Of a DNA stretch of 64,000 nucleotides, positions 7,662 through 26,505 are shown piece by piece. The notes under the pieces were generated by a model that saw only the letters and a list, made by a program, of their open reading frames with translations, did no database searches and was not told where the DNA came from. Made by a program: the position numbers and the translations under genes. The DNA is taken from NCBI GenBank assembly GCA_015234045.1, contig JADFWU010000004.1, forward strand, positions 43,045 through 107,044. Reading direction: 5' to 3'. This DNA is from Magnetococcales bacterium (GTDB lineage Bacteria > Pseudomonadota > Magnetococcia > Magnetococcales > JADFWU01). The first letter of the stretch is position 1. Each line of letters opens with the position of its first letter.

Positions 7662-9410
7662 TTAAAAACGCATGCCTAGCAATGAACCAGACACATCATT
7701 ATCTGTCAATCTCAACCGTACATATTGATTAATATCAAAATTTGAACAAAACTCATCATGCGGAACCATATCGCTATTCATAGTGCAGATATACTGAAAA
7801 CCACGTTTTTCTGACTCTCTACAAGCCAATTCCAAGGCCCGCGCACGTTGACGCTCATCAACGCCATCAAACATTAGACTATCATGAATCAGAACACGGG
7901 GAGTTTTTTCATGTTCCGCCCATAAACTAGCCAACATCAAGTCATAACAGAAAATCTTCATATTCCCGATTCCGTCACTTTCTGAGCGTTCAATTTCAAC
8001 ATCAAAAAGATAACCTTTAGACTCAACATTCACTACTAAGTCACCTGGAACCTCATACAAATATTGAGAATATTCATTAAATAAGGAAATTGCTTTTTCA
8101 CGCACTGTTTTTCGTTCATCGTGATCTATGCGCCATTTTTGGTGTAATTTTTCTCTATCAATTTTCAGCTGACTTTGACCAGTCACAAAAGCACGTTGAT
8201 TTTCAATCATGGATATTACTTCATTTAACTCATTTACTGCTTTCATATGTTGCTGTTGAAGACGATTATACTCATTCAATGCACCATGAGCTTGCAGAGT
8301 TCTCATAATATTAGCACGTATTTCAGTTTTTTCTTGAATGCTTTTTTCACGTTGAGATATAGATAGTTTTATTCTTTCTATTTCATCAGCAAGAAAATCA
8401 TGTCGGTTCGCAATAATCTGAGCATGAAATTTTTTGACTTCTTCTATCTTCCTTAGTGCAATGCCAGGAAGTGCGATTCCAGCTTCTTCATAAATTCGAA
8501 CCAAAGCATCATTCTGTGGTGGAGTCTCATCTTGAAGATTTCCTTCATATAAAACTAAAAACTGCTGATCCATATTGTTCGAATTCATCAAATCATGAAC
8601 TTCTTTTGTTAGCTTGTCAGCATTATTTTGCAGTTCTTCATATTTTGGATGGACTCGAAATTGGCTAATTTCTATTTCTTCTCGCTCAATCTGACTCTCA
8701 ATCCTAACTCTTTGCGACTCTAATTCACCCAATGTTGTTTTAAAACCTTGAACAATTCCACCATCAATTGCCTTCTTCAAAACATTAATATCTTCTTCAC
8801 GCTTTTTTATTACTTCAAGTTCTCCAACATATTCCCATGCAAGCCCAAGTAAAAAAGCATTTGTAAGCATGGCATCCTGTTTCGTTTGCTTACCATACGA
8901 CTCAAAAGGCGTTAAATAGGCACCTTTTCCACGTCGAATAAAGTAAGAGATCATACTTCGAAAAGATGCCCGTTTAGACTGTCCTTTCTGTTCTATTGGG
9001 AGACCAAAAAGAAGATCTCCCAGTAACAGATTCAGTTCGCTGGCTAGATATACTAAATTACCTTTACGTGCAGTCGGTTGAATAGGCCATAATGGCGATA
9101 CATCATAGACATAAATATTTGAATAACTATCTATTCCTCGGGTGATTGTAACAGGTTTATTATCAATACTTATCTCTAAGGAAAACGTCCAATCAGCTAA
9201 ATGTTTTTTTGGCAGTACTTTCTTTTGCGCTGCATCAATATTAGCCCCAAGACAAAAATGAATTATTTGAATTAATGTAGTTTTTCCAAGACCATTACGA
9301 GAATCCTTCCCCGAAGAAACCGTTGTGCGGTCTGCAAGAACAATATTGAACCCCTCGGTAAAGGCCAATTTTCTAAAACGATGATCATTTGCATAGATCT
9401 GAGTAATCAC
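7662..9410 (-). CDS. coiled-coil ABC/SMC-like ATPase (DUF2326-type), candidate ATPase component of an ABC-three-component (ABC-3C) system
   Basis: 582 aa. The N-terminal Walker A is SRNGLGKTTLIQII. A coiled-coil insert of about 250 aa is rich in E, K, Q and L (aa 190-440). The C-terminal Walker B/D-loop-like segment is PRVLIHDSLMFDGVDERQ. The GTG start overlaps the stop of the upstream gene by 4 nt (GTGA). Confidence 0.75.
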   Translation of the reverse strand: MITQIYANDHRFRKLAFTEGFNIVLADRTTVSSGKDSRNGLGKTTLIQIIHFCLGANIDAAQKKVLPKKHLADWTFSLEISIDNKPVTITRGIDSYSNIYVYDVSPLWPIQPTARKGNLVYLASELNLLLGDLLFGLPIEQKGQSKRASFRSMISYFIRRGKGAYLTPFESYGKQTKQDAMLTNAFLLGLAWEYVGELEVIKKREEDINVLKKAIDGGIVQGFKTTLGELESQRVRIESQIEREEIEISQFRVHPKYEELQNNADKLTKEVHDLMNSNNMDQQFLVLYEGNLQDETPPQNDALVRIYEEAGIALPGIALRKIEEVKKFHAQIIANRHDFLADEIERIKLSISQREKSIQEKTEIRANIMRTLQAHGALNEYNRLQQQHMKAVNELNEVISMIENQRAFVTGQSQLKIDREKLHQKWRIDHDERKTVREKAISLFNEYSQYLYEVPGDLVVNVESKGYLFDVEIERSESDGIGNMKIFCYDLMLASLWAEHEKTPRVLIHDSLMFDGVDERQRARALELACRESEKRGFQYICTMNSDMVPHDEFCSNFDINQYVRLRLTDNDVSGSLLGMRF

Positions 9411-9634
9411 GGCCTATTCCTTCTGATCAAACCATCTACCAACTCAACGGCTCCGATAGCATAGAGAAAATCCAATACCAGAACAAAACGCCAATAGACA
9501 GTTAGCCCAGGTGCTTGACGCACACGATTCCATAGACTAGTCACAGTCTGTGGGGTGTGTAAATTATTCAACACCACAGAACCTGCTCCAATAACCGCAT
9601 GATCAAGGTCAACATGTTTTGTGGGGAGAATCAC
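9407..9634 (-). CDS. small 75-aa protein, candidate ABC-3C middle component
   Basis: It sits between the HNH gene and the ATPase gene with GTGA start/stop overlaps at both ends (9407-9410 and 9631-9634). Its size and position fit the small middle component of ABC-3C cassettes. I recognise no motif in it. Confidence 0.55.
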   Translation of the reverse strand: MILPTKHVDLDHAVIGAGSVVLNNLHTPQTVTSLWNRVRQAPGLTVYWRFVLVLDFLYAIGAVELVDGLIRRNRP

Positions 9635-10392
9635 TTTTCAAACACCTCACAACTTTGAAACAAATAGACCAATACAGAAAGGCCAGCAGCTTTTTGAGTA
9701 AAATCCCAACTTTCATCACTGGCAAATTCTTGCATAGCCTGAAACAAATCATTACCTACTAATCCTTTACTCCTAACTCTGTTATATTCTTTGACAAAAC
9801 CAGACTTAAGGCGTTCAGGAAATTCATCGTCCCATTTTGCCACAGATTGCAGATAACTTCTAACCAAGTCACTTTTTAGCAACCCAATCTGAATTGACCC
9901 TTTTATTTCTTCTGTCAGATTATTACGTGCCATCTTATCTGGAATATTTAATAAAGAGACATCAGGAAATATCTCCTGTCCTGGCTTAGCTTGAATTCTC
10001 TTGGTGACCTCCTCTAATTCATCGAACCCAAACCGTGTAAAAGCTTCATTCAATTGAATTCTAACCCATTCTTCGTGTTCTTTTTTGATTTTTTCAAGCA
10101 ATTTCACTGGCCATATATTTGGCTGTTTATCTATCTTAGAATGGCAAGATGGACAAAGCAAAATTAGATTTTTATGATGATCTCTTTGATCAAGTGGATA
10201 ATCTGGGTCACCGCGAGCTGCATCATCCGATTTACCAATAATATGAGCTAGCTCTCCAATCTGCTGAACTTTTTCACTTTTAGTACCAGATAATAACAAT
10301 TCCTCCCGACAATCTGGCATGGAACAGAGAGCTGCTGCTGCACCATAAATAATTTTTATATCTTTTATTGCAATATTTCTTGATTTCGCCAC
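9631..10392 (-). CDS. HNH endonuclease fused to a C-terminal helical domain, candidate ABC-3C effector component
   Basis: 253 aa. It has Cys pairs CSMPDC and LCPSCHSKID, with ELAHIIG and HHKNLILLC between them, which is the canonical HNH (His-Me finger) arrangement. About 150 aa of uncharacterised helical C-terminal region follow. GTG start with AAGGA about 9 nt upstream. Confidence 0.8.
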   Translation of the reverse strand: MAKSRNIAIKDIKIIYGAAAALCSMPDCREELLLSGTKSEKVQQIGELAHIIGKSDDAARGDPDYPLDQRDHHKNLILLCPSCHSKIDKQPNIWPVKLLEKIKKEHEEWVRIQLNEAFTRFGFDELEEVTKRIQAKPGQEIFPDVSLLNIPDKMARNNLTEEIKGSIQIGLLKSDLVRSYLQSVAKWDDEFPERLKSGFVKEYNRVRSKGLVGNDLFQAMQEFASDESWDFTQKAAGLSVLVYLFQSCEVFEK

Positions 10393-10768: not shown

Positions 10769-12016
10769 TTTCACTACCGGACACTTTTTACCCCTAAGCC
10801 CTCTTGAGAGGCATAACGAGTCGTAAGCCTTCATTTAGAAGGTGCTCCAGCCAGCGAAATCCAAGCTGAAACAGGCTTAAATCAATGCGATTACAACGAT
10901 GTATCTCCCCTGCCTTTCCGCTTTCTTTGCACAACTCTCCCAAGTAAACCACCCAGATGTAAGCAAGGCAGGCTGCTATCAGAAGGCGCGACAAGCGTTC
11001 AGGATTTGACAGGTGGGATCGCTGGATTTGGAAGCCTCTTGTCTTCTGGTCACTGAAAAACGTTTCGATTCTGAAACGAAGGGCGTACTGATCACACACC
11101 TCTTCAGCAGTGGTCAAATTTGAGACCAGGTATATGGGCTCTTTGCAGTCTTCTCTCCACCAACAAACCACCCTAACAGGTCCATGTTTATCTTTTTTAA
11201 ACAAACAATTGCAAACATCTATATATTCTCCTTCCGTCATGTGTTTCTCAATTTCACGGCAAGAAAATTCATATCCCTCCCAATTCAAAATGATGCTCTT
11301 ACTGGTCCGACAGGAAAAGTCCCATCCCATCATGGATACCGTCTCCAGAAGACGGACACCATCAAACTCCCCGTCCCCCAGGATCACCACACGGGTATCT
11401 GATGGAATCAAGGCTTGAATCTGCTCCATCAGGCGCAAGTGCAACTCTTCAGGGAGGTGCCCCTTTTTACCCTTCAGCACAATCCAAGTGATCGGCAGAG
11501 CCCGCCCTTTGAAGATGACGTTGGCCATCAAAGCGATGTTCCCTCGTCCAACGGAGCTTCCATCTATAGCAATGACCAAGGCCTCTTGAATCTGGGCAAG
11601 TCGAGCCATCAATAGTTGCGCGAAAGGAAGAAAATATTCTTCTATTTCAATGCGTTTATTCCGCACCCAACGAACAAACTTCTTTTCCCTGCTTGTCAGT
11701 TTTGTGCCGTTGGGCGCTTTGCTTGCCACCTCAGGCAGATGTACATTCTTTGCCCCGATGATTCCGCTCATCATGGCTGCAAGGGTATTCAAATGACGGG
11801 CTACGTTCCCGCTGGCAGTGCCAGGAAAAAGCGTGGTAAGCTCTTTTCTGATGATGCGGAACCTTTTCGCATTGTCACCCATGGCTGTGTCCTTTGCTTG
11901 GTCGTTGAGGATGCAGCCATTTTTATTTTTCTCGGATGAAACGTCAATATTTCAATGTATTACCACGTCTTTCAAAGCTCGTCAAACTCCTCTGGAAAAA
12001 GTGTCCGGTAGTGAAA
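10769..12016 (-). mobile_element. complete IS4-family insertion sequence (about 1.25 kb)
   Basis: Perfect 21-bp terminal inverted repeats: TTTCACTACCGGACACTTTTT at 10769-10789 and AAAAAGTGTCCGGTAGTGAAA at 11996-12016. They bracket a single intact DDE transposase ORF. I saw no obvious target-site duplication. Confidence 0.85.
10794..11882 (-). CDS. IS4-family DDE transposase
   Basis: 362 aa. The YALRFRIETFFSDQK segment matches the IS4 Y-(2)-R-(3)-E-(6)-K signature. Candidate catalytic Asp blocks are VIAIDGSS and VVILGDGEFD. Confidence 0.9.
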   Translation of the reverse strand: MGDNAKRFRIIRKELTTLFPGTASGNVARHLNTLAAMMSGIIGAKNVHLPEVASKAPNGTKLTSREKKFVRWVRNKRIEIEEYFLPFAQLLMARLAQIQEALVIAIDGSSVGRGNIALMANVIFKGRALPITWIVLKGKKGHLPEELHLRLMEQIQALIPSDTRVVILGDGEFDGVRLLETVSMMGWDFSCRTSKSIILNWEGYEFSCREIEKHMTEGEYIDVCNCLFKKDKHGPVRVVCWWREDCKEPIYLVSNLTTAEEVCDQYALRFRIETFFSDQKTRGFQIQRSHLSNPERLSRLLIAACLAYIWVVYLGELCKESGKAGEIHRCNRIDLSLFQLGFRWLEHLLNEGLRLVMPLKRA

Positions 12017-13099: not shown

Positions 13100-13558
13100 G
13101 TGAAACAGATATTTTTTACTATACTGATAACGCTACTATTTTCCGTTAGCGTAATCGCGTCACCGGACAAAACCCGTTTTGATGATCTGCAAGGTGTCCT
13201 CTATCAAAGCACTCATGATGGTGACACGATTCGCTTTAACATTCCCAACACACACCCATTATTTGGTCACAATATTCCAATTCGCCTACGTGGCATTGAT
13301 ACTCCAGAGATCAATTCATCCTGCCCATCTGAACGACAACATGCCATTGCAGCCCGTCAGCATGTTCATACTCTTTTGCACAATGCACACACAATCACTC
13401 TGAAAAGGGTTGGACGTGGGAAATATTTTCGGATTCTGGGTGATGTCGTTTTTGATGGCGTGGACCTTGGCCAGCATCTACTACAGAATGGGTGGGCCGT
13501 TTCTTATGATGGCGATCAGAAGAAATCTGTTTGGTGTGACTCTATAGTTAATGAATAG
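13100..13558 (+). CDS. secreted thermonuclease (staphylococcal nuclease, SNase-like) family protein
   Basis: 152 aa. It has an N-terminal signal peptide (ILITLLFSVSVIASP). The IRLRGIDTPE and RILGDV segments and the overall size match the SNase OB-fold nuclease family. Confidence 0.8.
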   Translation: MKQIFFTILITLLFSVSVIASPDKTRFDDLQGVLYQSTHDGDTIRFNIPNTHPLFGHNIPIRLRGIDTPEINSSCPSERQHAIAARQHVHTLLHNAHTITLKRVGRGKYFRILGDVVFDGVDLGQHLLQNGWAVSYDGDQKKSVWCDSIVNE

Positions 13559-16832: not shown

Positions 16833-18017
16833 CTATATGCAAACCGTAGACCGACCTGCCGCTTTGGCCCGATAAAGCGCATCATCTGCACTCTTAAGCC
16901 ACTCATCTACTGAAAGCCCCGGCTGCCAACAGGCCAAACCAATGCTTACACCTAACTTATCGGCTCCTGGCGCTTGAATGTTGAGCGCTTTTACAACTTT
17001 GCAGAGCCGCTTCATGAGCAAAAAGCCCATATCTTCAACAGTGTTGGGCAAAATCAGTGCAAATTCATCTCCACCGGTTCTGGCCAACAAATCTGACCCA
17101 CGGATCATTTTCAATAACGCTTTTGATACCGCTTTCAAGGCATCATCACCATCCGCGTGACCGAGCCGATCATTGATGGCTTTAAAGTGATCCAGGTCCA
17201 GATACGCCAATGCCAAAGGATGACCATAGCGCTGTGCATTGGCAATTTCCTGATTCAAACGCTCATCAAAAACCCGACGATTGACCAAGCCGGTCAATGT
17301 GTCCCGTCGTGCCTGATCGTACAACTCTTCATAAGTCAACGCCCGCTCAATGGGACCATGAAGCTCTTCGGACATCTCAGCCACAAGATCATCCAGATCA
17401 GAACTTCTATTGCTGGGCGCTCCACGCCGAATCAACAATAGACGATCCTCATCATGACTGAGCTGCGTCACACGATACCAAAATCCATCATGACCTTTAT
17501 GATCCAGCGCACCCTCTTCACCCACTTCCGGCGTGTGGTCAAGAATGTACTCCGCTGCATCTATCAGGCGTTGGCGGTGTGGTCCGTGACAGGAACAGGC
17601 AATGTATTGCCGATTGCGCGAAAAGTGGCGATAAGCCACCAACTCGTGATCCAAATGCGGACGCAACCAAGTTGAAAACGTCTCCAACATTGATGCCAGA
17701 TCCAGTTTTTCGCCCAGCTGACGGTGCAGGTGATAGCGCCGTTCCAATTGGTTATTACTGTTTCTGACCCGATCCAGCTCTTTGACCTTTGGCATCAACC
17801 AAAGTGAAAATGACTCGATCATGGAAGCCAAATCCGGCTTCTCTCCCAATTGCATATTCAGATCGTACATACGATTGAGCTGATCGGCACGATTTTGATA
17901 GTGACTCAACGCCTCTCCCAGAGTCGGTCCTGACTCCGGCCAAATCAGATTGGCTATCGGTGTCCGGTCTAGTGGCGGTGTGCCCGATGTTTTTTGATGA
18001 TTAACAACAATGCCCAT
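16833..18017 (-). CDS. diguanylate cyclase (GGDEF domain) with an N-terminal region containing an internal duplication
   Basis: 394 aa. The C-terminal domain has RTGGDEFALIL, DLDHFKAINDRLGH and ADDALYRAKAAGR. The N-terminal region contains two similar segments of about 34 aa. Confidence 0.9.
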   Translation of the reverse strand: MGIVVNHQKTSGTPPLDRTPIANLIWPESGPTLGEALSHYQNRADQLNRMYDLNMQLGEKPDLASMIESFSLWLMPKVKELDRVRNSNNQLERRYHLHRQLGEKLDLASMLETFSTWLRPHLDHELVAYRHFSRNRQYIACSCHGPHRQRLIDAAEYILDHTPEVGEEGALDHKGHDGFWYRVTQLSHDEDRLLLIRRGAPSNRSSDLDDLVAEMSEELHGPIERALTYEELYDQARRDTLTGLVNRRVFDERLNQEIANAQRYGHPLALAYLDLDHFKAINDRLGHADGDDALKAVSKALLKMIRGSDLLARTGGDEFALILPNTVEDMGFLLMKRLCKVVKALNIQAPGADKLGVSIGLACWQPGLSVDEWLKSADDALYRAKAAGRSTVCI

Positions 18018-18311: not shown

Positions 18312-18352
18312 GAAAAAAATGCCCGTCCATAGCGCGTTGGACGGGCATTTTC
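18312..18352 (-). terminator. rho-independent terminator after the 1671-aa gene
   Basis: ATGCCCGTCCA (18319-18329) pairs with TGGACGGGCAT (18338-18348). The adjacent plus-strand A-run gives a U-run on the minus-strand transcript. It lies 13 nt downstream of the stop at 18365. Confidence 0.7.
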
Positions 18353-18364
18353 TGCACACTTTGC

Positions 18365-21300
18365 TCACTCCACTTGAATACCCCAGTACATCCCTTTATC
18401 TAAAAAATGCACTTCAAGACGCTTCCTGTCATTGCCAAAAGAGACCATCATGGACCAATCTTCAATCACAAAATGGTGCTTATCCACCTTATTTACCACA
18501 TGATCCAGTGAATCAACCCGCTTTTCCCGCCACTTCACACGCGCCAAACCGCCATTTTCACGCTCCTCTATGAGAAGATGTTTCAAACGCGCGCGCCATG
18601 AAAAAGTATACCCCTCCATGTAGCGGCTAAAATCACGTGAAACAACGGAAGACGATCTCCATTGCTGTGCGGTTTCTGATTCTGTACTTAACGCCTGGTC
18701 ACTTTGAGTGATATCGTCTGAATCCGCTGGTTCTGGTGTTATCTCTGGTTCTGGTGTTACCTCTGGTTCTTTAATTTCTTCTCGTTTTTGCACACTATTT
18801 TCATGATCAACCGTTCCACTATCCGCTATTGGTGCTTTTTCTATCTGTTTGATCGTTGCCTGATTATGTTCTGTATCACGCCCATTAATAGCAGAGCTTG
18901 CCTTATTGTTTGGTTGATCTGTAATTTCCCTCTTTTTCAGTGCATCACTATCTGGCCGTTCGATCCCTTGTGATACAACATCGTCAAGACTATTTAATCC
19001 GGAAATACCGCTGGCTCCCGCCAGTGCCAAAGAAGAAGACGCTGGCCCTATTACGTCTGTCTCTTTACCGGACTTTGGAACCAGATTGAGAATGTTAAAA
19101 TCATTGGATCTCATGGATGCAACCATCTGATCCTTTGTTGATTTTAACACATCATTATTCTGCTTTTTCTGTACAGCGTCCTGATCATGTACAGTTTGTG
19201 TGATTGATGGCAACGTGAAGCCTTTGAAACAGAGCGACAGATCATCCAAGGTCAGTTTTGGCAACTCGGGATAGTCTGGAATAATATCCAGCGATTTAAT
19301 TTTCAGCTGCTTCTTTTTCTCCTCCAGCCGTCTAATCGAATCAACAACCGGACGTTCACGCTCTTCATCATGGCGAATTTGGCGATCTTTTACCCGTAAC
19401 CAACGAAGAGCCAACGCTTTTTGATCCGCTGGATTGAGTGTATCGTCCTCAATAAACGACTCACACAATTGCAAGGCATCACTAAACCGACCGGCCCGCT
19501 CAACAGCGGCTACCATTTCCAAAGCAGAGACACAATTCGGTAGTTTCCTGACCCCTTGTTTCCAGCGCTTATTAAGATAGGCACGCACACTTTTTTGGTC
19601 ATCCATGCGCGCACTGACCAAACTATCCGAACGAGCCAATATTTTTATCAAGACAACCCCAACCCCTTTTCTTACCGCTTTTAGGAGTTGCTCTAGCGGC
19701 CTTTTAATTTTACGTCTCTTCGGCCCAATCATTTTGGCTGGTTCGCCACGAGCTAAAACAAAGGCCCTGTCAAATTGACCAGCCGTGACTATCAATTGGA
19801 TTGCAACAGCCCAATAGAGGGGTTGAAGCGACTGCGGAAGCTTTGGAAGAATTTTCTTGAGTGATGCTAAAGTATTGGGATTATTTCTCTGAAAAACCAC
19901 TTCAAGTGAAGATTGTAACTCATTATTTTCACAAAGACTTACAACAACTTGGTCAATAATTGAACGGGTCAAACCAGCATGATCAGGCTGTTCAAGTACC
20001 TGTAGAGTGATCTCTTCATGGCAATTTAGGCGTTGCAAATAGAAAAGATTCTCAGGAAACGGTGCAACCTTTGCCTTGGCAAAATCATAGAAACGATTGC
20101 TACCGCTTAGATTTTCATGCTCAAAAATCCGAATGGATTCACGGTAATCTCCAGCAAGACAACTCACTCTGCCCAAATCCATTGCTGAAATCGTAATCCC
20201 AGTGTTGGCGATCTTCGACAACGTACTTTGAAGTGATGTCCATTCTGCTGTTTTTACGCCCTCTTCAGCCGGGTTCTGATGGCTGATATCGAGTTTTGAT
20301 AGCAAACGATTAACCAACCGATTGGCATTCTCTTCATGAATACGCATATCGGTAAGTTTGAGTTTTTCCACCCAAGATTCGGATTTTTTCGAAATTTCAC
20401 TCAACAAGGCAACAGCACTGAGCGGATCACCAGCCTGCTGTATCTCAACCTGTTTAAGGATTCGATTGATGACATGTTTTGCAACCATTTTACTGGAGTC
20501 ACTCAACCAATCCACACGATGCCATCCCTCTTTTCCTGCCAGCCATAAAACGGGCAATGCATGAGAATAGTCTTCGATTTTTACAAACCGATTTCCCGAT
20601 TCTAAATATTTTCCCTCAAACAACTCCGCCCATGCCAACACAGAATCAGCTTGATTTGAATCACCCATATTCCGATATAGCGCCGCCGCCTGACGCAGTT
20701 GATACGGATCACGCCGGGTCATACCGTCCATTTTTCTTTCGTCAGCCTGATCCCTGTAATTCTCCTCACGACATTGTGATATATCGCTCTCTTCTGAACC
20801 TTCCACCAAAGAGGTAATACATTTGCGCCATGCAATCATAGCCTCATTAGCATTGTCACTATAAAGACCTGGAATAGTATTGGGCTGTTGAAAGGGCAAC
20901 CAGAAATCCATCCCCTCTTCAGGCTCAATGATCATCAAGCGCTTTTTGGCGCGTGTCAGCGCCACATAGAGACGATTAATAAAATATTCCGCTTCCAGTG
21001 CTGCCCCTTCCCGACTGGGAAACGGTTCCAATCCATCAGAAATTTTTCGTTTTAACACCTCTGGTGCATTGGCTCCAAACCCATACAACGCCACCCGGTT
21101 GAACTCCAACCCTTTGGCCCGTACTGCGCTATATAGATTAACCGGAACGCCTTCTATCACATCAATAACCGATGCCAACCATCGATCAGTATCTCGAAAA
21201 TGTTTCTCTTCGTTATATCCACAAGGTGCGAGAAAAACGATATCTTTTTCTTGACGAAGACGCGCAACCAACCCGCTGTCACCCGCATGAAACAGCAACG

Positions 21301-23380
21301 GAGACGGGCTATTCTCCTCTACACTCCACGGTGTTTGAGATTTAATATTTTTTATGTTGAACAAGACACTTCGGATCAACTGAAGCAGATTGGACAGACG
21401 GACAATATTCGGTTCGGATCGATAGTTGTAAGAGAGTTCTTCATAATTAATGTCCCGCTTTCCTGCACCATCTCCACTGTAAGGCAGAATGATTTTCTCG
21501 GTAAAAATCGCCTTAATTGCTTCCCATCGAAACCCTGTTGGATTCAGAGTCTGAAACTCATCACCTGCGAAAACAAACGGTACCGCGCCAATCTCATCAT
21601 AATGAACGGTTCTATGTGAAAAGAGCGAAAGCCGGAAAATCAGTTCCAATTCATTTCGAGTAAAATCCTGCGCTTCATCGCAAAATATAGCTGATAACAG
21701 TGGCTTCTCTTCATTATCCAAATCGTCTATATGGTCAATAACTGCCCGGACCAAGTCTTGATCATCCCAAAGACGGCCATCCAACCCTTCACGCCGATAC
21801 CAATTCATCCAGATCTTTTGATAAATCCGATCAAATTGTTCAAAACAGATAATTTTTTCTGCTTTAGGCAGCCCTTGATACTCAATTGGCGTAATGTCAC
21901 TGTCATCTTCAAGATTGGCTCCTTTGATCACCGAGCGAATCACATGCCAGGACTCTTCTGGCGTAAGTCCTATAGAGGATTGATCGAATGAAAATTTTTC
22001 ATTCCAAAGTTTTCTGAACCGAACCCAATCAACATAGTTATTTGGACTAAATTGCCGTTGAATAGCAGTCGGCAAAAGGGATTTAAGATAGTCGTAGAAT
22101 TTTTTGAAAGACCCGTCAATCAGTCGTATCTCTTCCCGAGTGAGAGATTTTTTATCCCGAGCCATGAGTAGATCTGAACGTTTTTCAATCAGATTACTGA
22201 CAGTATTCTTTGCCACATCCAACAGGTTGGAACTACAGGTAAAATAGACCGGTGCCGGAACGGATTTCAGAATCTCTCGGTTTTGCAGATAGTGAATCAA
22301 ATAATCAATGAACATGTATTGCAGAATAGTGGACTTGCCACTACCGGCCCGACCATTGATAAATAATGGAAAAGCCCGTTTACGACCACGTGACTCGCCC
22401 ACACTGCGTAACAGGTCAGACTCTTCTGGAGAAAGGGCTAGATTACTTTCCCGATCATTCTGAATAGCCAACCAATAGCTTCTGTCCGTTAACAATATGG
22501 CTGGATATGACCGACGCGCATTTTTTGAAATTGTCTCATGATCAATAGGTTGATCACCAAGGAGAGGCTGATATCTTTTAGTCAGCTTCTCTTTCTCAAT
22601 ATCGCTATCAACCTCAATTACACCCGCTAAAAACAGATTGGCTTCTGATTTCTGATAGCGATACAAAATCATCAGATTGGTATCAGCAATAGAGTACCAA
22701 CCAGACTCAGCTTGCGTAGCATCATCAACTAAAGACATAATAGCATCAGGAATAAATGCTAAATGCGTATGAATAACCTCTTGTTGTACATGTTCGATCC
22801 AATCCACACTTTCAAATACTGTATCACCATCCCAATTGGTATCTGAATGAGCAATGTTAAAAAGATACTCACTTTCCGCTTCACTGGGCCTCGGCAGCGC
22901 GTCTACTGGCTGATCGGAAATACGCTGGAGAATCTCATCTTCCATTTGCGCTTGAAAATTGTGAAAAAAATTCTCCAGCAATTCATCTCTAGCGCCAGAG
23001 TTTAACCGACAGAACAGTTCATACTCATTGTCACCACGAATCATTATCCTAAGCAAAATCAATACTTCTTGATTATGAACCGTGGTCAATTGACCAATAA
23101 GTCTCAACTGCCTGGTTTTGGCAAATTTCTTCTTAACCCAGAAACTCCCGGCAAATGGTGTCATACCATAAATGCGCTGCACCGCTTCAACACGCTCCTT
23201 GATCTCGAAAAGCGCACTTTCACAGTTATGCCTTTTTGCATCCGATTTACAATCAGGCGAAATACTCACATAGAGTGTCAAGGTAGAATCTCCTGAATTA
23301 TCAAATTGATTGTCAACGGAGGATGGGCGTATTACACACTCCGAGATTGATATTTTCCAATCACAAATAATGGATACCAT
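18365..23380 (-). CDS. giant (1671 aa) UvrD-like superfamily-1 helicase/ATPase with an unknown N-terminal domain and a long C-terminal helical-repeat and low-complexity extension
   Basis: The SF1 motifs appear in order: Q-like LALSPEES; motif I INGRAGSGKST (about aa 341-351); motif II AIFCDEAQDF (about aa 564-573); motif III FVFAGDEFQTL; motif IV YNYRSEPNIV; motif V SAVRAKGLEFNRVALYG; motif VI RLYVALTRAKKRLMII (about aa 803-818). About 310 aa of unrecognised sequence lie N-terminal to the core. C-terminal to it are about 550 aa of TPR-like helices, an acidic S/E/P-rich stretch and a final domain of about 100 aa. Confidence 0.85.
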   Translation of the reverse strand: MVSIICDWKISISECVIRPSSVDNQFDNSGDSTLTLYVSISPDCKSDAKRHNCESALFEIKERVEAVQRIYGMTPFAGSFWVKKKFAKTRQLRLIGQLTTVHNQEVLILLRIMIRGDNEYELFCRLNSGARDELLENFFHNFQAQMEDEILQRISDQPVDALPRPSEAESEYLFNIAHSDTNWDGDTVFESVDWIEHVQQEVIHTHLAFIPDAIMSLVDDATQAESGWYSIADTNLMILYRYQKSEANLFLAGVIEVDSDIEKEKLTKRYQPLLGDQPIDHETISKNARRSYPAILLTDRSYWLAIQNDRESNLALSPEESDLLRSVGESRGRKRAFPLFINGRAGSGKSTILQYMFIDYLIHYLQNREILKSVPAPVYFTCSSNLLDVAKNTVSNLIEKRSDLLMARDKKSLTREEIRLIDGSFKKFYDYLKSLLPTAIQRQFSPNNYVDWVRFRKLWNEKFSFDQSSIGLTPEESWHVIRSVIKGANLEDDSDITPIEYQGLPKAEKIICFEQFDRIYQKIWMNWYRREGLDGRLWDDQDLVRAVIDHIDDLDNEEKPLLSAIFCDEAQDFTRNELELIFRLSLFSHRTVHYDEIGAVPFVFAGDEFQTLNPTGFRWEAIKAIFTEKIILPYSGDGAGKRDINYEELSYNYRSEPNIVRLSNLLQLIRSVLFNIKNIKSQTPWSVEENSPSPLLFHAGDSGLVARLRQEKDIVFLAPCGYNEEKHFRDTDRWLASVIDVIEGVPVNLYSAVRAKGLEFNRVALYGFGANAPEVLKRKISDGLEPFPSREGAALEAEYFINRLYVALTRAKKRLMIIEPEEGMDFWLPFQQPNTIPGLYSDNANEAMIAWRKCITSLVEGSEESDISQCREENYRDQADERKMDGMTRRDPYQLRQAAALYRNMGDSNQADSVLAWAELFEGKYLESGNRFVKIEDYSHALPVLWLAGKEGWHRVDWLSDSSKMVAKHVINRILKQVEIQQAGDPLSAVALLSEISKKSESWVEKLKLTDMRIHEENANRLVNRLLSKLDISHQNPAEEGVKTAEWTSLQSTLSKIANTGITISAMDLGRVSCLAGDYRESIRIFEHENLSGSNRFYDFAKAKVAPFPENLFYLQRLNCHEEITLQVLEQPDHAGLTRSIIDQVVVSLCENNELQSSLEVVFQRNNPNTLASLKKILPKLPQSLQPLYWAVAIQLIVTAGQFDRAFVLARGEPAKMIGPKRRKIKRPLEQLLKAVRKGVGVVLIKILARSDSLVSARMDDQKSVRAYLNKRWKQGVRKLPNCVSALEMVAAVERAGRFSDALQLCESFIEDDTLNPADQKALALRWLRVKDRQIRHDEERERPVVDSIRRLEEKKKQLKIKSLDIIPDYPELPKLTLDDLSLCFKGFTLPSITQTVHDQDAVQKKQNNDVLKSTKDQMVASMRSNDFNILNLVPKSGKETDVIGPASSSLALAGASGISGLNSLDDVVSQGIERPDSDALKKREITDQPNNKASSAINGRDTEHNQATIKQIEKAPIADSGTVDHENSVQKREEIKEPEVTPEPEITPEPADSDDITQSDQALSTESETAQQWRSSSVVSRDFSRYMEGYTFSWRARLKHLLIEERENGGLARVKWREKRVDSLDHVVNKVDKHHFVIEDWSMMVSFGNDRKRLEVHFLDKGMYWGIQVE

Positions 23381-23748
23381 TATAGTGTATATAGTTAGGC
23401 GTTACGCAGTTGCCGGTTGAGACAGGCATCAAAGCGTGTATAGTAATTTCGATCCGAAATTAGACAATGAATCACAACCTGAGTGGAAACCCTGGTGATG
23501 TTTTTGCGCCGCTTTTGATATGCGAAGCAGATCATCAGAGCAAAAATATCACCAGGGCTGGAACGGCTGACTGTTCAAATTTTAGACGAAATCACTGTAC
23601 CATCATTCAACTGCTCAACTTCTAATATTATAAGCTTAAATTATTAATATGCTATCACAAACAATATTTAACAGTATAGAATTTATGCTAGACAAGTTAA
23701 TTGATCAAATACGGCCCATCACAGGCAACATACAGGAAAAACAGACAA

Positions 23749-24999
23749 CTAGATAAGAATACCAACGACAGCACCGGTCAAACAGGTGGCTAATGTGCCC
23801 GAAACAATTGTCCGCATGCCCAACCCAACAATCTCTTCACGGCGACTGGGTGCCATGGCTGTCAAACCGCCCACCATAATGCCTAAACTGCCAAAGTTGG
23901 CAAAGCCACACAAAGCATAGGTCATGATCAGGCGACTTCTTTCGGATAAGTCATCCGTTGAGAGTTTAGTTAGGTCAAGATAAGCGAGAAACTCATTCAG
24001 AACGGTTTTTGTACCCAACAATGCGCCTGCCGTGGCTGCTTCAGCCCAGGGAACACCCATCAACCAAGCGACTGGAGCCATAACCCAACCGAAAACACGT
24101 TGCAAAGTGATCAACTCACCATCAATCGCAGGCAATACGCCCAGAAAGGTATTCACCAAAGCCACCAAAGCCACTAGCACAATCAACATGGCAATGATAT
24201 TGATCAATAGAGTAATACCATCTGTCGTACCATGTACAATCGCCTCCATGGTGGATCGATTCTCTGACGACATCATGGTCACTTTGCGTTGTGAACTACC
24301 ACTATTATCCGGCACCATAATCAACGCCACCATCAACGCAGCTGGCGCACTGATAATTGATGCTGCCAAAATATGGCCCATGGCATCCGGTATGACACTG
24401 CCCAATATGGCCGCATACAACACCATCATCGTGCCGGCAATCGTCGCCATACCGCCGGTCATCAAGGCGAACAGCTCCGAACGTGTCATTTTATCTAAAA
24501 AAGGACGCACCAGAACCGGTGCTTCTACCATGCCCATAAAGATATTCGCAGCACTGCCCAACCCTAGCGCACCACTGATACCCAGGCTTTTTTGTAACAA
24601 CCAGGACAATCCTTGAACAATCATCGGAAGAATACGCCAGTAGTAGAGCACCGCAGAGAGCGCACTCATGACCAATACAAGAGGCAAGGCCTGAAAGGCA
24701 AGAATAAAGCTGGAGCCTGGTCTATCTTCTACAAAGGGCAAACCACCACCACCCAGATATCCAAAAACAAACGAAGTACCGGTCTTAGTGGCTTCTTGAA
24801 GGGCGATAACACCCTGATTAAGAATAAGAAAAAATTCCTGAATCAGAGGAATTTTGAGAAAAACAACAGCCAAACTAATCTGTAACACCATGCCAACAAC
24901 AACGACTTTCCAGCGCACACGCGACCGATTTTCACTCATCAGCCATGCCAACCCCGTTAACACAAAGAATCCGGCTAGGCTTTGCAACACAGTAAACAC
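23749..24999 (-). CDS. nupC: NupC/NupG-family concentrative nucleoside transporter
   Basis: 416 aa polytopic membrane protein. The N-terminus LQSLAGFFVLTGLAWLMSENRSRVRWKVV and the C-terminal GFANFGSLGI block are typical of the CNT family. Confidence 0.88.
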   Translation of the reverse strand: MFTVLQSLAGFFVLTGLAWLMSENRSRVRWKVVVVGMVLQISLAVVFLKIPLIQEFFLILNQGVIALQEATKTGTSFVFGYLGGGGLPFVEDRPGSSFILAFQALPLVLVMSALSAVLYYWRILPMIVQGLSWLLQKSLGISGALGLGSAANIFMGMVEAPVLVRPFLDKMTRSELFALMTGGMATIAGTMMVLYAAILGSVIPDAMGHILAASIISAPAALMVALIMVPDNSGSSQRKVTMMSSENRSTMEAIVHGTTDGITLLINIIAMLIVLVALVALVNTFLGVLPAIDGELITLQRVFGWVMAPVAWLMGVPWAEAATAGALLGTKTVLNEFLAYLDLTKLSTDDLSERSRLIMTYALCGFANFGSLGIMVGGLTAMAPSRREEIVGLGMRTIVSGTLATCLTGAVVGILI

Positions 25000-25005
25000 C
25001 TCATT

Positions 25006-26505
25006 TTATCGCGCTGAAAAAAAACTCTGTAACGAATTGATCAACTGTGCGTTCGTGTTGGCCAGTACGTCATTCATCTGACCAAGACCGCCCATGGCGT
25101 TAGACACATTATTGCGCACCTGACCCAGACGTATCTGCTCATTGGCCAGCATGATTTGATTAGGATTTTGCTCGGTCAAGGATTTGGAGCGTGCAGAAAG
25201 CGCATCCATTCGTGCAGTAATACTGCCGGTACGCCCCGTTAATTCCGTAACCAAAGCATCCAGCTGATAGGCAACACCCTTGGTGCCGGTTTCTGAATTC
25301 CCTGCCACGACTTCGGATACCGCAGTAAAGTTCTGTTCAATGGCCTGCTGGAATTTATCCTCATCAATTTCCAGCTTACCGCCTGCACCAGTCTGTACAC
25401 CCAATTCCGCCAATGTATTAATACTGGTGGTCGTATCGTCCACTTCTGAATTGACCACATCACGCAACTGACTGGTGAGATTTCTAGCCAGTTCATCACC
25501 GCTCAAACCACTACGGCGCTCTTCAGACAGTGTATTCACAACACCGTTGAATGCATCGACCAGAGAGTGCAACGCCTCTTTGAGTGCTTCGCTATCCTGT
25601 GCAACCGTCAGAGTAGTATCGTTTTCAGTAATGGAATTAAGCTTGACCGTGACACCAGAAACCAGATTGTCAACCGTATTACTACTGGAGTAGGAGGTTA
25701 TACCATCCAGGCTGTAACTTGCATCCTGACCGGCCTGACTGCTGAAAAAATCATCCTGAGTGACAGTAGATCCGCCATATTCCAACCCAGCATCGACACC
25801 GCTACTGGTCTCAGTTATACGAATATTGTCAATACGTGATTGGCTGGTTGAACCATCATCAGCACGGGTGTAAGCACCGGAATCCCGCGCTGAAATTATC
25901 AAGCGAGCCGCACCATCCTGATTAATAAGGCTTGCACTGACACCCGCTTCATCACCAAAATCCAACTTATTAATTTTTGAAGCCACATCGGAAAGGGTCT
26001 CACCCGCTTTCAGATCAACGGCATAGTCCTGACCATTATAGGCAAAAGTGAGTGTGCGATCCGACAACAAACCGGAATACGCATCCACACCACTGCCTTG
26101 ATCCGAACTGTCCGACTGGTCCCGCCCGACACCAAAAGTCACCGTGGAATTATTAGCAAGACGATCCACAGAAAGCGCATAAGTACCCGCTTCTGCACTA
26201 CTTGAAGCGGTTGCAAAAAACAGAGACTCATCAGCACTTTCCGCTGACATAGGAGAGAACTGCTCTGAATTTTGAGCATTTTTTGCGGTATTGCGTAGCG
26301 TATGAAGTCGCCCTTCCACACGGGCAAAGCCTTCCCGTTTGGCCACATAGGGATTGCTGGATACTTTCTCAACTGAAGAGAGACCAGTATAGCTCTGTTG
26401 CAAGCTTTTCAGCTGCGAAATCAGAGAGGTGGCATCAATACCACGACTACTACTGGTTCTGTTGGTTCCGGTCAACAGACGAATCAGGTCAAAGTTACCA
26501 AGCAT
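25006..26505 (-). CDS. fliD: flagellar filament capping protein (hook-associated protein 2)
   Basis: 499 aa. It has an N-terminal GIDATSLISQL heptad region, a Ser/Thr/Asp/Gly-rich central head, and a C-terminal LAELGVQTGAGGKLEIDEDKFQQAIEQNFTAV plus a terminal coiled coil. These match the FliD N- and C-terminal domains. Confidence 0.8.
   Translation of the reverse strand: MLGNFDLIRLLTGTNRTSSSRGIDATSLISQLKSLQQSYTGLSSVEKVSSNPYVAKREGFARVEGRLHTLRNTAKNAQNSEQFSPMSAESADESLFFATASSSAEAGTYALSVDRLANNSTVTFGVGRDQSDSSDQGSGVDAYSGLLSDRTLTFAYNGQDYAVDLKAGETLSDVASKINKLDFGDEAGVSASLINQDGAARLIISARDSGAYTRADDGSTSQSRIDNIRITETSSGVDAGLEYGGSTVTQDDFFSSQAGQDASYSLDGITSYSSSNTVDNLVSGVTVKLNSITENDTTLTVAQDSEALKEALHSLVDAFNGVVNTLSEERRSGLSGDELARNLTSQLRDVVNSEVDDTTTSINTLAELGVQTGAGGKLEIDEDKFQQAIEQNFTAVSEVVAGNSETGTKGVAYQLDALVTELTGRTGSITARMDALSARSKSLTEQNPNQIMLANEQIRLGQVRNNVSNAMGGLGQMNDVLANTNAQLINSLQSFFSAR

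Follow-up and report, generated by a model that had tools for sequence, protein, structure and literature searches.

We analysed a 64,000-nucleotide stretch of contig JADFWU010000004.1 (positions 43,045 to 107,044) from a Magnetococcales bacterium (assembly GCA_015234045.1), hereafter the window, which carries a long reverse-strand gene for a superfamily 1 (SF1) helicase fused at its N-terminus to a domain with the predicted fold of RelE-type toxins. The gene is solitary in the window, standing between a nupC-type transporter gene (23749-24999) and the gene of a GGDEF protein (16833-18017), the two neighbours named in the original prediction. As that prediction also had it, the open reading frame (ORF) runs without interruption over 18365..23380 (-), giving 1671 residues from ATG 23380. 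The start codon was then moved: judged from the sequence, translation probably begins at TTG 23281 and not at ATG 23380, because the Shine-Dalgarno motif AGGAG (23290..23294, (-)) is read 8 nt 5' of the TTG and homologues begin there. The alignments of the 119 listed homologues and of the database copy P0001 (1638 aa) all start at residue 34 of the longer frame, and a Shine-Dalgarno sequence looked for upstream of ATG 23380 was not found. From the TTG, the whole gene comprises 1638 codons plus stop (18365..23281, (-)) and the protein would be 1638 aa long, not 1671. Residues are numbered here on the 1638-aa protein, 33 below the numbering of the original prediction. A TATAAT-like hexamer at window positions 23379-23384 overlaps ATG 23380 and fits a promoter there rather than coding sequence; no good -35 box was found to go with it.

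The spacer upstream of the TTG start measures 467 bp, longer than the 370 bp first proposed, and the strong terminator that had been claimed behind the gene is present as an intrinsic terminator with a 16-bp stem and a T-run (18314-18353, (-)), 12 nt past the stop codon. The GC content of the gene is 0.434, compared with 0.471 +/- 0.031 for 38 other ORFs of the window, and the GC content at third codon positions (GC3) is 0.395 against 0.452 +/- 0.063. These deviations of about one standard deviation make the gene only marginally richer in AT than its neighbours, and we rejected AT-richness as a sign of horizontal transfer. The setting is chromosomal, with dnaE, accA and uvrB nearby. Among the tested ORFs of the 64-kb window we found no SNF2, PglX-like, YprA-like, DUF499 or restriction genes, and no OLD/TOPRIM-type (GajA-like) neighbour stands beside the gene. 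The proteins encoded at 16833-18017, 18365-23281, 23749-24999 and 25006-26505 are all singletons at 90% identity among 15 billion proteins, and the source organism is therefore poorly sampled.

The first ~310 residues had been described as matching nothing recognisable, which holds for sequence searches and fails for structure. Searches of NCBIfam and PADLOC with the whole protein, and a PDB profile search, returned nothing for residues 1-300. An AlphaFold2 (AF2) model of the N-terminal module, built on 30 diverse sequences, reached a predicted local distance difference test (pLDDT) score of 87, and within it residues 1-92 (23006..23281, (-)) are arranged as beta-alpha-alpha-beta-beta-beta-beta. 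Compared with the PDB using Foldseek, with the 302-aa model as query, this segment gave approximately 35 RelE, YoeB, HigB, YafQ, ParE, PfiT or Cami1 structures among the top 50 matches, a YoeB/ParE toxin entry being one of them. The RelE-type matches had probabilities up to 1.00, template modelling (TM) scores (target) of 0.56-0.67 and root mean square deviations of 3.3-3.6 Å. Residues 1-92 are thus predicted to form a compact unit of ~90 residues with the RelE/ParE-superfamily fold, a putative effector domain. A Foldseek comparison of the N-module with viral structures was not informative.

Within this domain, Lys50 is kept in 118 of 120 sequences, Lys51 in 119, Arg60 in 119, Arg82 in 112 (with lysine in the other 8) and Tyr87 in all 120; Phe90 (120) and Cys11 (119) are near-invariant as well, and the window protein retains every one of these residues. 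The catalytic basic and tyrosine residues of Escherichia coli RelE are K52, K54, R61, R81 and Y87, and compared with these by sequence, the Lys/Lys/Arg/Arg/Tyr set of the family has the same order and nearly equal spacing. An alignment of the N-domain profile with E. coli RelE using hhalign was non-significant (E 0.23), its register pairing K50 with K54 and R60 with R61. No cognate antitoxin was found: the 467-bp spacer (23282-23748) holds no plausible small ORF, and no neighbour is conserved among 32 homologue loci.

The toxin-fold domain is followed by a region modelled with confidence by AF2 (residues 93-280, 22442..23005, (-)), comprising a long connector helix (95-123) and an alpha/beta subdomain (134-275). 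The subdomain has invariant residues of its own (Glu136, Glu157, Trp161, Arg257, Tyr259 and Trp270) and no Pfam or PDB-profile match. Next comes the helicase core, residues 281-800 (20882..22441, (-)), a divergent UvrD/GajB-like SF1 unit identified by motifs, Pfam and hhalign. All SF1 motifs occur in the predicted order: Walker A GRAGSGKST (310-318), CDEAQDF (534-540), motif III AGDEFQTL (572-579), motif IV YNYRS (618-622), motif V KGLEFNRV (723-730) and motif VI YVALTRAKKRL (772-782), together spanning nt 20936-22354. The Walker A lysine, counted as K349 before, is K316 in the present numbering, and the core makes up ~32% of the protein, close to the 30% first estimated. The motif residues are invariant throughout the family. 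UvrD_C was the sole UvrD-type Pfam model above its cutoff in the window protein (33.1 bits against 25.6); the UvrD-helicase model PF00580 does not match it, and matches 4 of 33 relatives. We read the core from its sequence as a true UvrD/Rep-like SF1 helicase, yet a divergent one, and no NCBIfam equivalog matches the protein.

The C-terminal half begins with ~540 residues (801-1340, 19262..20881, (-)) that are collinear with homologues and presumably serve as a sensor or scaffold. These had been read from the sequence as TPR- or HEAT-like helical repeats; a helical, TPR-like region remains the presumption, and the repeats could not be shown in the window protein itself, where Pfam gives no TPR, while TPR_2 matches 4 of 33 relatives and other TPR models 1-2 each. 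A low-complexity, partly acidic linker rich in Ser, Pro, Thr and Glu follows by composition and alignment (1341-1545, 18647..19261, (-)), ~170 aa longer in the window protein than in homologues, which are mostly gapped there. The protein ends with an all-beta domain of 93 residues (1546-1638, 18368..18646, (-)), so that both the acidic linker and the final domain of about 100 aa that had been proposed are real. AF2 modelled this domain from 44 sequences as ten consecutive beta strands with pLDDT 95.7 and a predicted TM (pTM) score of 0.86. Foldseek against the PDB gave no meaningful match (best E 0.13, probability below 0.6 throughout), and beta-propeller blades and the TCP10 single-layer sheet were rejected as homologues, their E-values being 0.13 or higher. 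The domain is kept in the same position across the family. In one relative, P0120 (1567 aa), it is replaced by an Mrr_N-like domain (PF14338), a swap which suggests that the last domain is exchangeable.

Among 5.8 billion proteins searched, 590 relatives of the window protein were found, the best of them only 31-34% identical. Their usual length is 1400-1480 aa, and they are labelled 'hypothetical' or 'TPR repeat protein'. Collinearity with the window protein extends from residue 1 to ~1345 and resumes for the final ~90 residues. When a profile of the first 300 residues was compared with 1.84 billion representative proteins, 853 clusters matched at E <= 1e-3 and 375 at E <= 1e-30. In the 150 matches listed, the domain is always N-terminal; most of these proteins are 1350-1780 aa long and the shorter ones look fragmentary. 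The order RelE-fold domain, alpha/beta subdomain, SF1 helicase, helical region, linker and beta domain is conserved across the family. Mean pairwise identity is 0.55 in the helicase and 0.51 in the RelE-like domain, 0.35 in the alpha/beta subdomain, and falls to 0.30 in the helical region, 0.26 in the beta domain and 0.17 in the linker; the two enzymatic modules are the most conserved and the C-terminal parts the most variable.

Scanned with a pattern, 185,579 species represented by one genome each yielded 44 loci, distributed over more than 12 phyla and one archaeon. The hosts include Bacteroidota, Verrucomicrobiota, Planctomycetota, Acidobacteriota, Nitrospirota, Chloroflexota, Myxococcota, Gemmatimonadota, Firmicutes and several proteobacterial orders, as well as one Paceibacterota metagenome-assembled genome (MAG) and the archaeon. 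Of the arguments for the horizontal acquisition that had been suggested for the gene, the compositional one is weak and the phyletic one holds. Rare and patchy, the family is also chromosomal: a member occurs on one of 2.9 million viral contigs, and on 72,556 plasmids tblastn found none, returning only helicase-core matches at 22-28% identity. One plasmid, pCRI9333.06 of Crinalium epipsammum, encodes a distinct stand-alone UvrD-like protein of 1095 aa (L050, 8476-11763) that is 28% identical to the window helicase core and has its own region of ~175 aa before the helicase match; its gene adjoins DUF262/DUF3696 genes and integrases.

We clustered all ORFs within 5 kb of the 32 homologue loci that had usable flanks. 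No neighbour family occurs in more than three of these loci, although many homologues have defence-type neighbours: the 112 nearest neighbours include DrmMI/type IIG, DruE, HmaC, nSTAND1, Cas1, McrBC and C5 methylase genes. A DUF499/HmaC gene is adjacent in three unrelated genomes (L003, L009, which equals L001, and L015), as part of a DUF499/DUF1156 (Hma-type) system. A PglX-like methyltransferase lies near the member in L014, L033 and L043, and a YprA/DruE-like helicase in L018, L033 and L040. Counted together, ARMADA-type genes occur within 5 kb in 5 of the 32 loci and abut the member on the same strand in three (L014, L033 and L040), while 24 have neither ARMADA-type nor DUF499 genes within that distance. 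Other settings combine a type I restriction-modification system, Fic and DUF499, Hma genes with insertion sequences, or an integrase with AIPR. As a further observation, the DUF499 protein of L015 bears an N-terminal Swt1-like HEPN domain.

In a Candidatus Lindowbacteria MAG (L033, 1391-20282), genes for an SNF2 helicase, a PglX-like methyltransferase, the family member and a YprA-like helicase follow one another in this order and are co-directional with gaps of 16-172 bp; here the member sits inside an ARMADA-like operon. The YprA-like helicase of this locus is 1986 aa long and ends with a Peptidase_S24 domain. A Kofleriaceae MAG (L040, 4529-18472) has a 1678-aa member between a YprA-like helicase gene and Cas10-palm-like/RAMP genes on the same strand. 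In an Opitutaceae MAG (L014, 3211-5679), a second protein, 823 aa long and containing UvrD_C_2, is encoded a short way upstream of the family member, with the SNF2 helicase on one side and the split PglX-like methyltransferase on the other.

ARMADA was defined by Bell et al., bioRxiv 2025 (PMC12458937; also 10.1101/2025.09.22.677730). ArmD of ARMADA type II combines a RelE-like domain with a UvrD helicase and is needed for anti-phage defence, which requires all four genes of the system; in the Walker A mutant K266A of ArmD, protection is lost (PMC12458937). A second preprint reports a weaker requirement for ArmD. A RelE-helicase partner is not described there for ARMADA type I (PMC12458937). 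As to the claim that no named system fits the window protein, no PADLOC v2 (2023) model covers the family, and ArmD is a named precedent. The armD gene that we located in E. coli ATCC 8739 with the published primer arm encodes 704 aa (ArmD accessions for E. coli, WP_000218177.1 / WP_000218176.1).

ArmD and the window protein share an N-terminal RelE-like domain, a spacer region and a UvrD/GajB-like SF1 helicase, and the profile of our family (37-789) is collinear with that of the ArmD family (33-696) at E 1e-5. With hhalign, the helicase cores alone align at E 6e-7, whereas the RelE-like domains (E 0.19) and the whole N-modules (E 0.4) do not align significantly; with ArmD taken as a single sequence, the N-terminal comparison was non-significant too (E 0.2-0.4 over all these comparisons). 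BLASTP between the window protein and ArmD covers motifs V-VI only. At the level of sequence, detectable homology to ArmD is limited to the helicase core. ArmD ends with its helicase, whereas in the window protein ~840 more residues follow, forming the helical region, linker and beta domain. PF00580, PF13245 and PF13361 all match the canonical helicase of ArmD, whereas that of the window protein is divergent and matches UvrD_C only. ArmD is encoded last in a strict armA-armB-armC-armD operon and is insufficient alone, unlike the solitary window gene, although some relatives of the window protein do adjoin ARMADA-type genes for SNF2 helicases, PglX-like methyltransferases and YprA-like helicases. 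The ArmD family has at least 8000 matches; the window family is rare. By the tests run, the window protein appears to lie outside the ArmD family while sharing its design principle, and is most likely a long stand-alone cousin of ArmD. We found no paper describing a long form with the helical region and beta domain.

Other known systems resemble the protein in parts. The mRNA interferases RelE, YoeB, HigB and YafQ, as well as Cami1, have the fold predicted for residues 1-92, and the RelE-type toxins present the Lys/Lys/Arg/Arg/Tyr set in the order found here. Cami1, a CARF-RelE CRISPR ancillary effector, has its toxin fold fused to a sensor and not paired with an antitoxin, as in the window protein. 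Unlike the RelE-type toxins, the window domain, as modelled, has no sequence-level family match and no antitoxin gene, and is fused to a helicase protein of more than 1500 aa. GajB shares the UvrD-type motifs. When PADLOC was run, 33 family members gave only weak, partial GajB matches, the best at E 6e-8, and those of the window protein were E 7e-6 or weaker, far below the level of true members; GajB also differs in having a GajA-type partner and other flanking domains.

A likeness in logic to STAND/Avs proteins had been proposed, and it stands as an analogy of layout only. Avs/STAND proteins and CapRel-type fused toxin-antitoxin (TA) proteins also place an effector, a switch or NTPase and a variable C-terminal sensor in one chain, the effector being presumed autoinhibited in cis, as we propose below. 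The NTPase of Avs/STAND is a STAND P-loop, whereas here it is an SF1 helicase, and the CapRel toxin fold differs from that of the window protein. Membership in STAND/Avs was rejected because the NTPase motifs are those of SF1; sub-threshold matches to NACHT, AAA_16 and nSTAND5 cover the P-loop/Walker A region only.

We consider it probable, by a modest margin over even chances, that the window protein is a self-contained defence-type protein with sensor, motor and toxin in one chain. From the computed fold, motif conservation, distribution and genomic contexts we infer a nuclease activity, a trigger, their coupling and a role in defence as follows. The RelE-like domain would be a ribosome-dependent mRNA endonuclease that is kept inactive in cis; an antitoxin gene is lacking. 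The helical region and the terminal beta domain may recognise a ligand derived from a phage; alternatively, the helicase itself could sense a foreign nucleic-acid structure, as GajB senses DNA ends. Through ATP binding and hydrolysis by the helicase core, recognition would lead to a change in conformation by which the toxin is exposed, and cleavage of mRNA would then halt translation and block phage production, through abortive infection or growth arrest.

The single-gene conflict system that had been envisaged is consistent with the solitary gene, the lack of a recurrent partner, the patchy family and the defence-type neighbours of many homologues, but it does not describe the whole family, given the loci that have ARMADA-type genes within 5 kb. 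We presume that the window protein acts alone in its own genome; in some other genomes, relatives are encoded beside, and in a few places among, the genes of ARMADA-like or Hma methylation-based systems. In its full form our proposal is more tentative, and we rate it somewhat below an even chance: an undescribed single-gene immune protein in which a UvrD motor and a variable helical/beta sensor gate a cis-fused, ribosome-dependent RelE RNase. On this reading the same module would also plug into ARMADA type I-like and Hma loci as a fourth component, and the protein, which carries a beta domain with no PDB match, would be a counterpart of ArmD that arose independently or diverged very deeply.

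Several points weigh against the reading as a one-chain sensor, motor and toxin. The RelE assignment derives from predicted structure, with no sequence or profile support: Pfam finds no RelE, ParE, HigB or YoeB family in the window protein or in 30 N-domains. The Foldseek E-values are only 1e-3 to 1e-2, owing to the 302-aa length of the query model. The family motif FDxFPPPY is degenerate in the window protein (MTPFAGSF). The neighbours of the window copy are purely housekeeping, as they are at some homologue loci, for example between gidB and parA. ARMADA II is reported to act directly and non-abortively and to need four genes (PMC12458937), and therefore a RelE-helicase fusion is not proven to work alone or through translation shut-off.

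The alternative that survives best, although we think it unlikely, is that the family provides an accessory subunit of multi-gene methylation-based systems (ARMADA-like, Hma), analogous to ArmD, and that the window copy is a near-inert orphan. It draws on the Lindowbacteria locus, where the member lies between the PglX-like methyltransferase and the YprA-like helicase, downstream of the SNF2 helicase, and on similar arrays in L014, L040 and L043, with a YprA-like gene nearby in L018. Table S1 of the ARMADA paper places the L043 contig under type I, with the helicase six locus tags from the family member (PMC12458937). The three loci with adjacent DUF499/HmaC genes and the dependence of ArmD on ArmA-C for defence agree with such a role. 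Set against this are the 24 of 32 loci without such genes within 5 kb, and the window itself, in which no tested ORF encodes an SNF2, PglX-like, YprA-like or DUF499 protein and the gene has its own terminator and 467-bp upstream spacer. The window protein has also retained all invariant motifs across its 1638 codons, which points to ongoing selection.

A different objection concerns the effector. The RelE-like domain could be ParE-like or a binding module that docks the ribosome or a partner, with no nuclease activity, and the helicase could be the effector, by nucleotide depletion or on phage DNA, as proposed for GajB. The RelE/ParE fold does host non-nuclease toxins as well, a YoeB/ParE entry is among the structural matches, no RelE family is matched at sequence level, the helicase core gives weak GajB matches, and ARMADA II is described as non-abortive. 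Five near-invariant basic and aromatic residues at RelE-like positions would be unexpected in a pure scaffold, however, and the best structural matches are the RNases RelE, YoeB, HigB, YafQ and Cami1; we regard this alternative as quite doubtful.

It is improbable, in our judgement, that the gene is a selfish fused TA (addiction) element or a stress-response translation regulator with no anti-phage role. RelE-family toxins are classic TA components and the gene is stand-alone and patchily distributed, but a 1638-aa protein with an ATP-driven helicase and a variable C-terminal array exceeds what an addiction module needs. The family's near-absence from plasmids (0 of 72,556) and viral contigs (1 of 2.9 million) means, in addition, that it is not typical of the elements that addiction modules stabilise. 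A housekeeping helicase for DNA repair or replication, as the UvrD-type motifs and the chromosomal window with dnaE, accA and uvrB might suggest, is scarcely credible for a rare, scattered family (44 of 185,579 species representatives) whose nearest relative to the window protein is only 34% identical, whose neighbourhoods vary, which has no NCBIfam equivalog and which carries a toxin-fold domain at its N-terminus.

If the self-contained reading is true, a single-gene system missed by the PADLOC v2 (2023) models would be added to the catalogue of defence systems. RelE-type toxins are usually held by a separate antitoxin, whereas in the window protein, as in ArmD, an ATP-driven helicase is joined to the toxin fold. 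With all parts in one chain, the long form would be a simpler object than four-gene ARMADA for studying how a helicase and a toxin are coupled. That it sometimes lies next to, or within, sets of ARMADA-like and Hma genes suggests that methylation-based systems have a modular 'toxin-helicase' accessory in common. The protein also contributes two domains, the alpha/beta subdomain and the terminal beta domain, that are confidently modelled and have no assigned fold.

Elsewhere in the window, two strongly AT-rich ORFs occur at 7662-10392 (-), with 10794-11882 and 13100-13558 (GC 0.36 and GC3 0.26, against 0.46 for the window). The first encodes DUF2326 and the CTD10 domain of ABC-three-component (ABC-3C) conflict systems, and the second has no Pfam match. 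The pair adjoins a DDE transposase and a staphylococcal-nuclease-like ORF, ~8 kb from the helicase gene, and qualifies more clearly than that gene as a candidate foreign defence islet.

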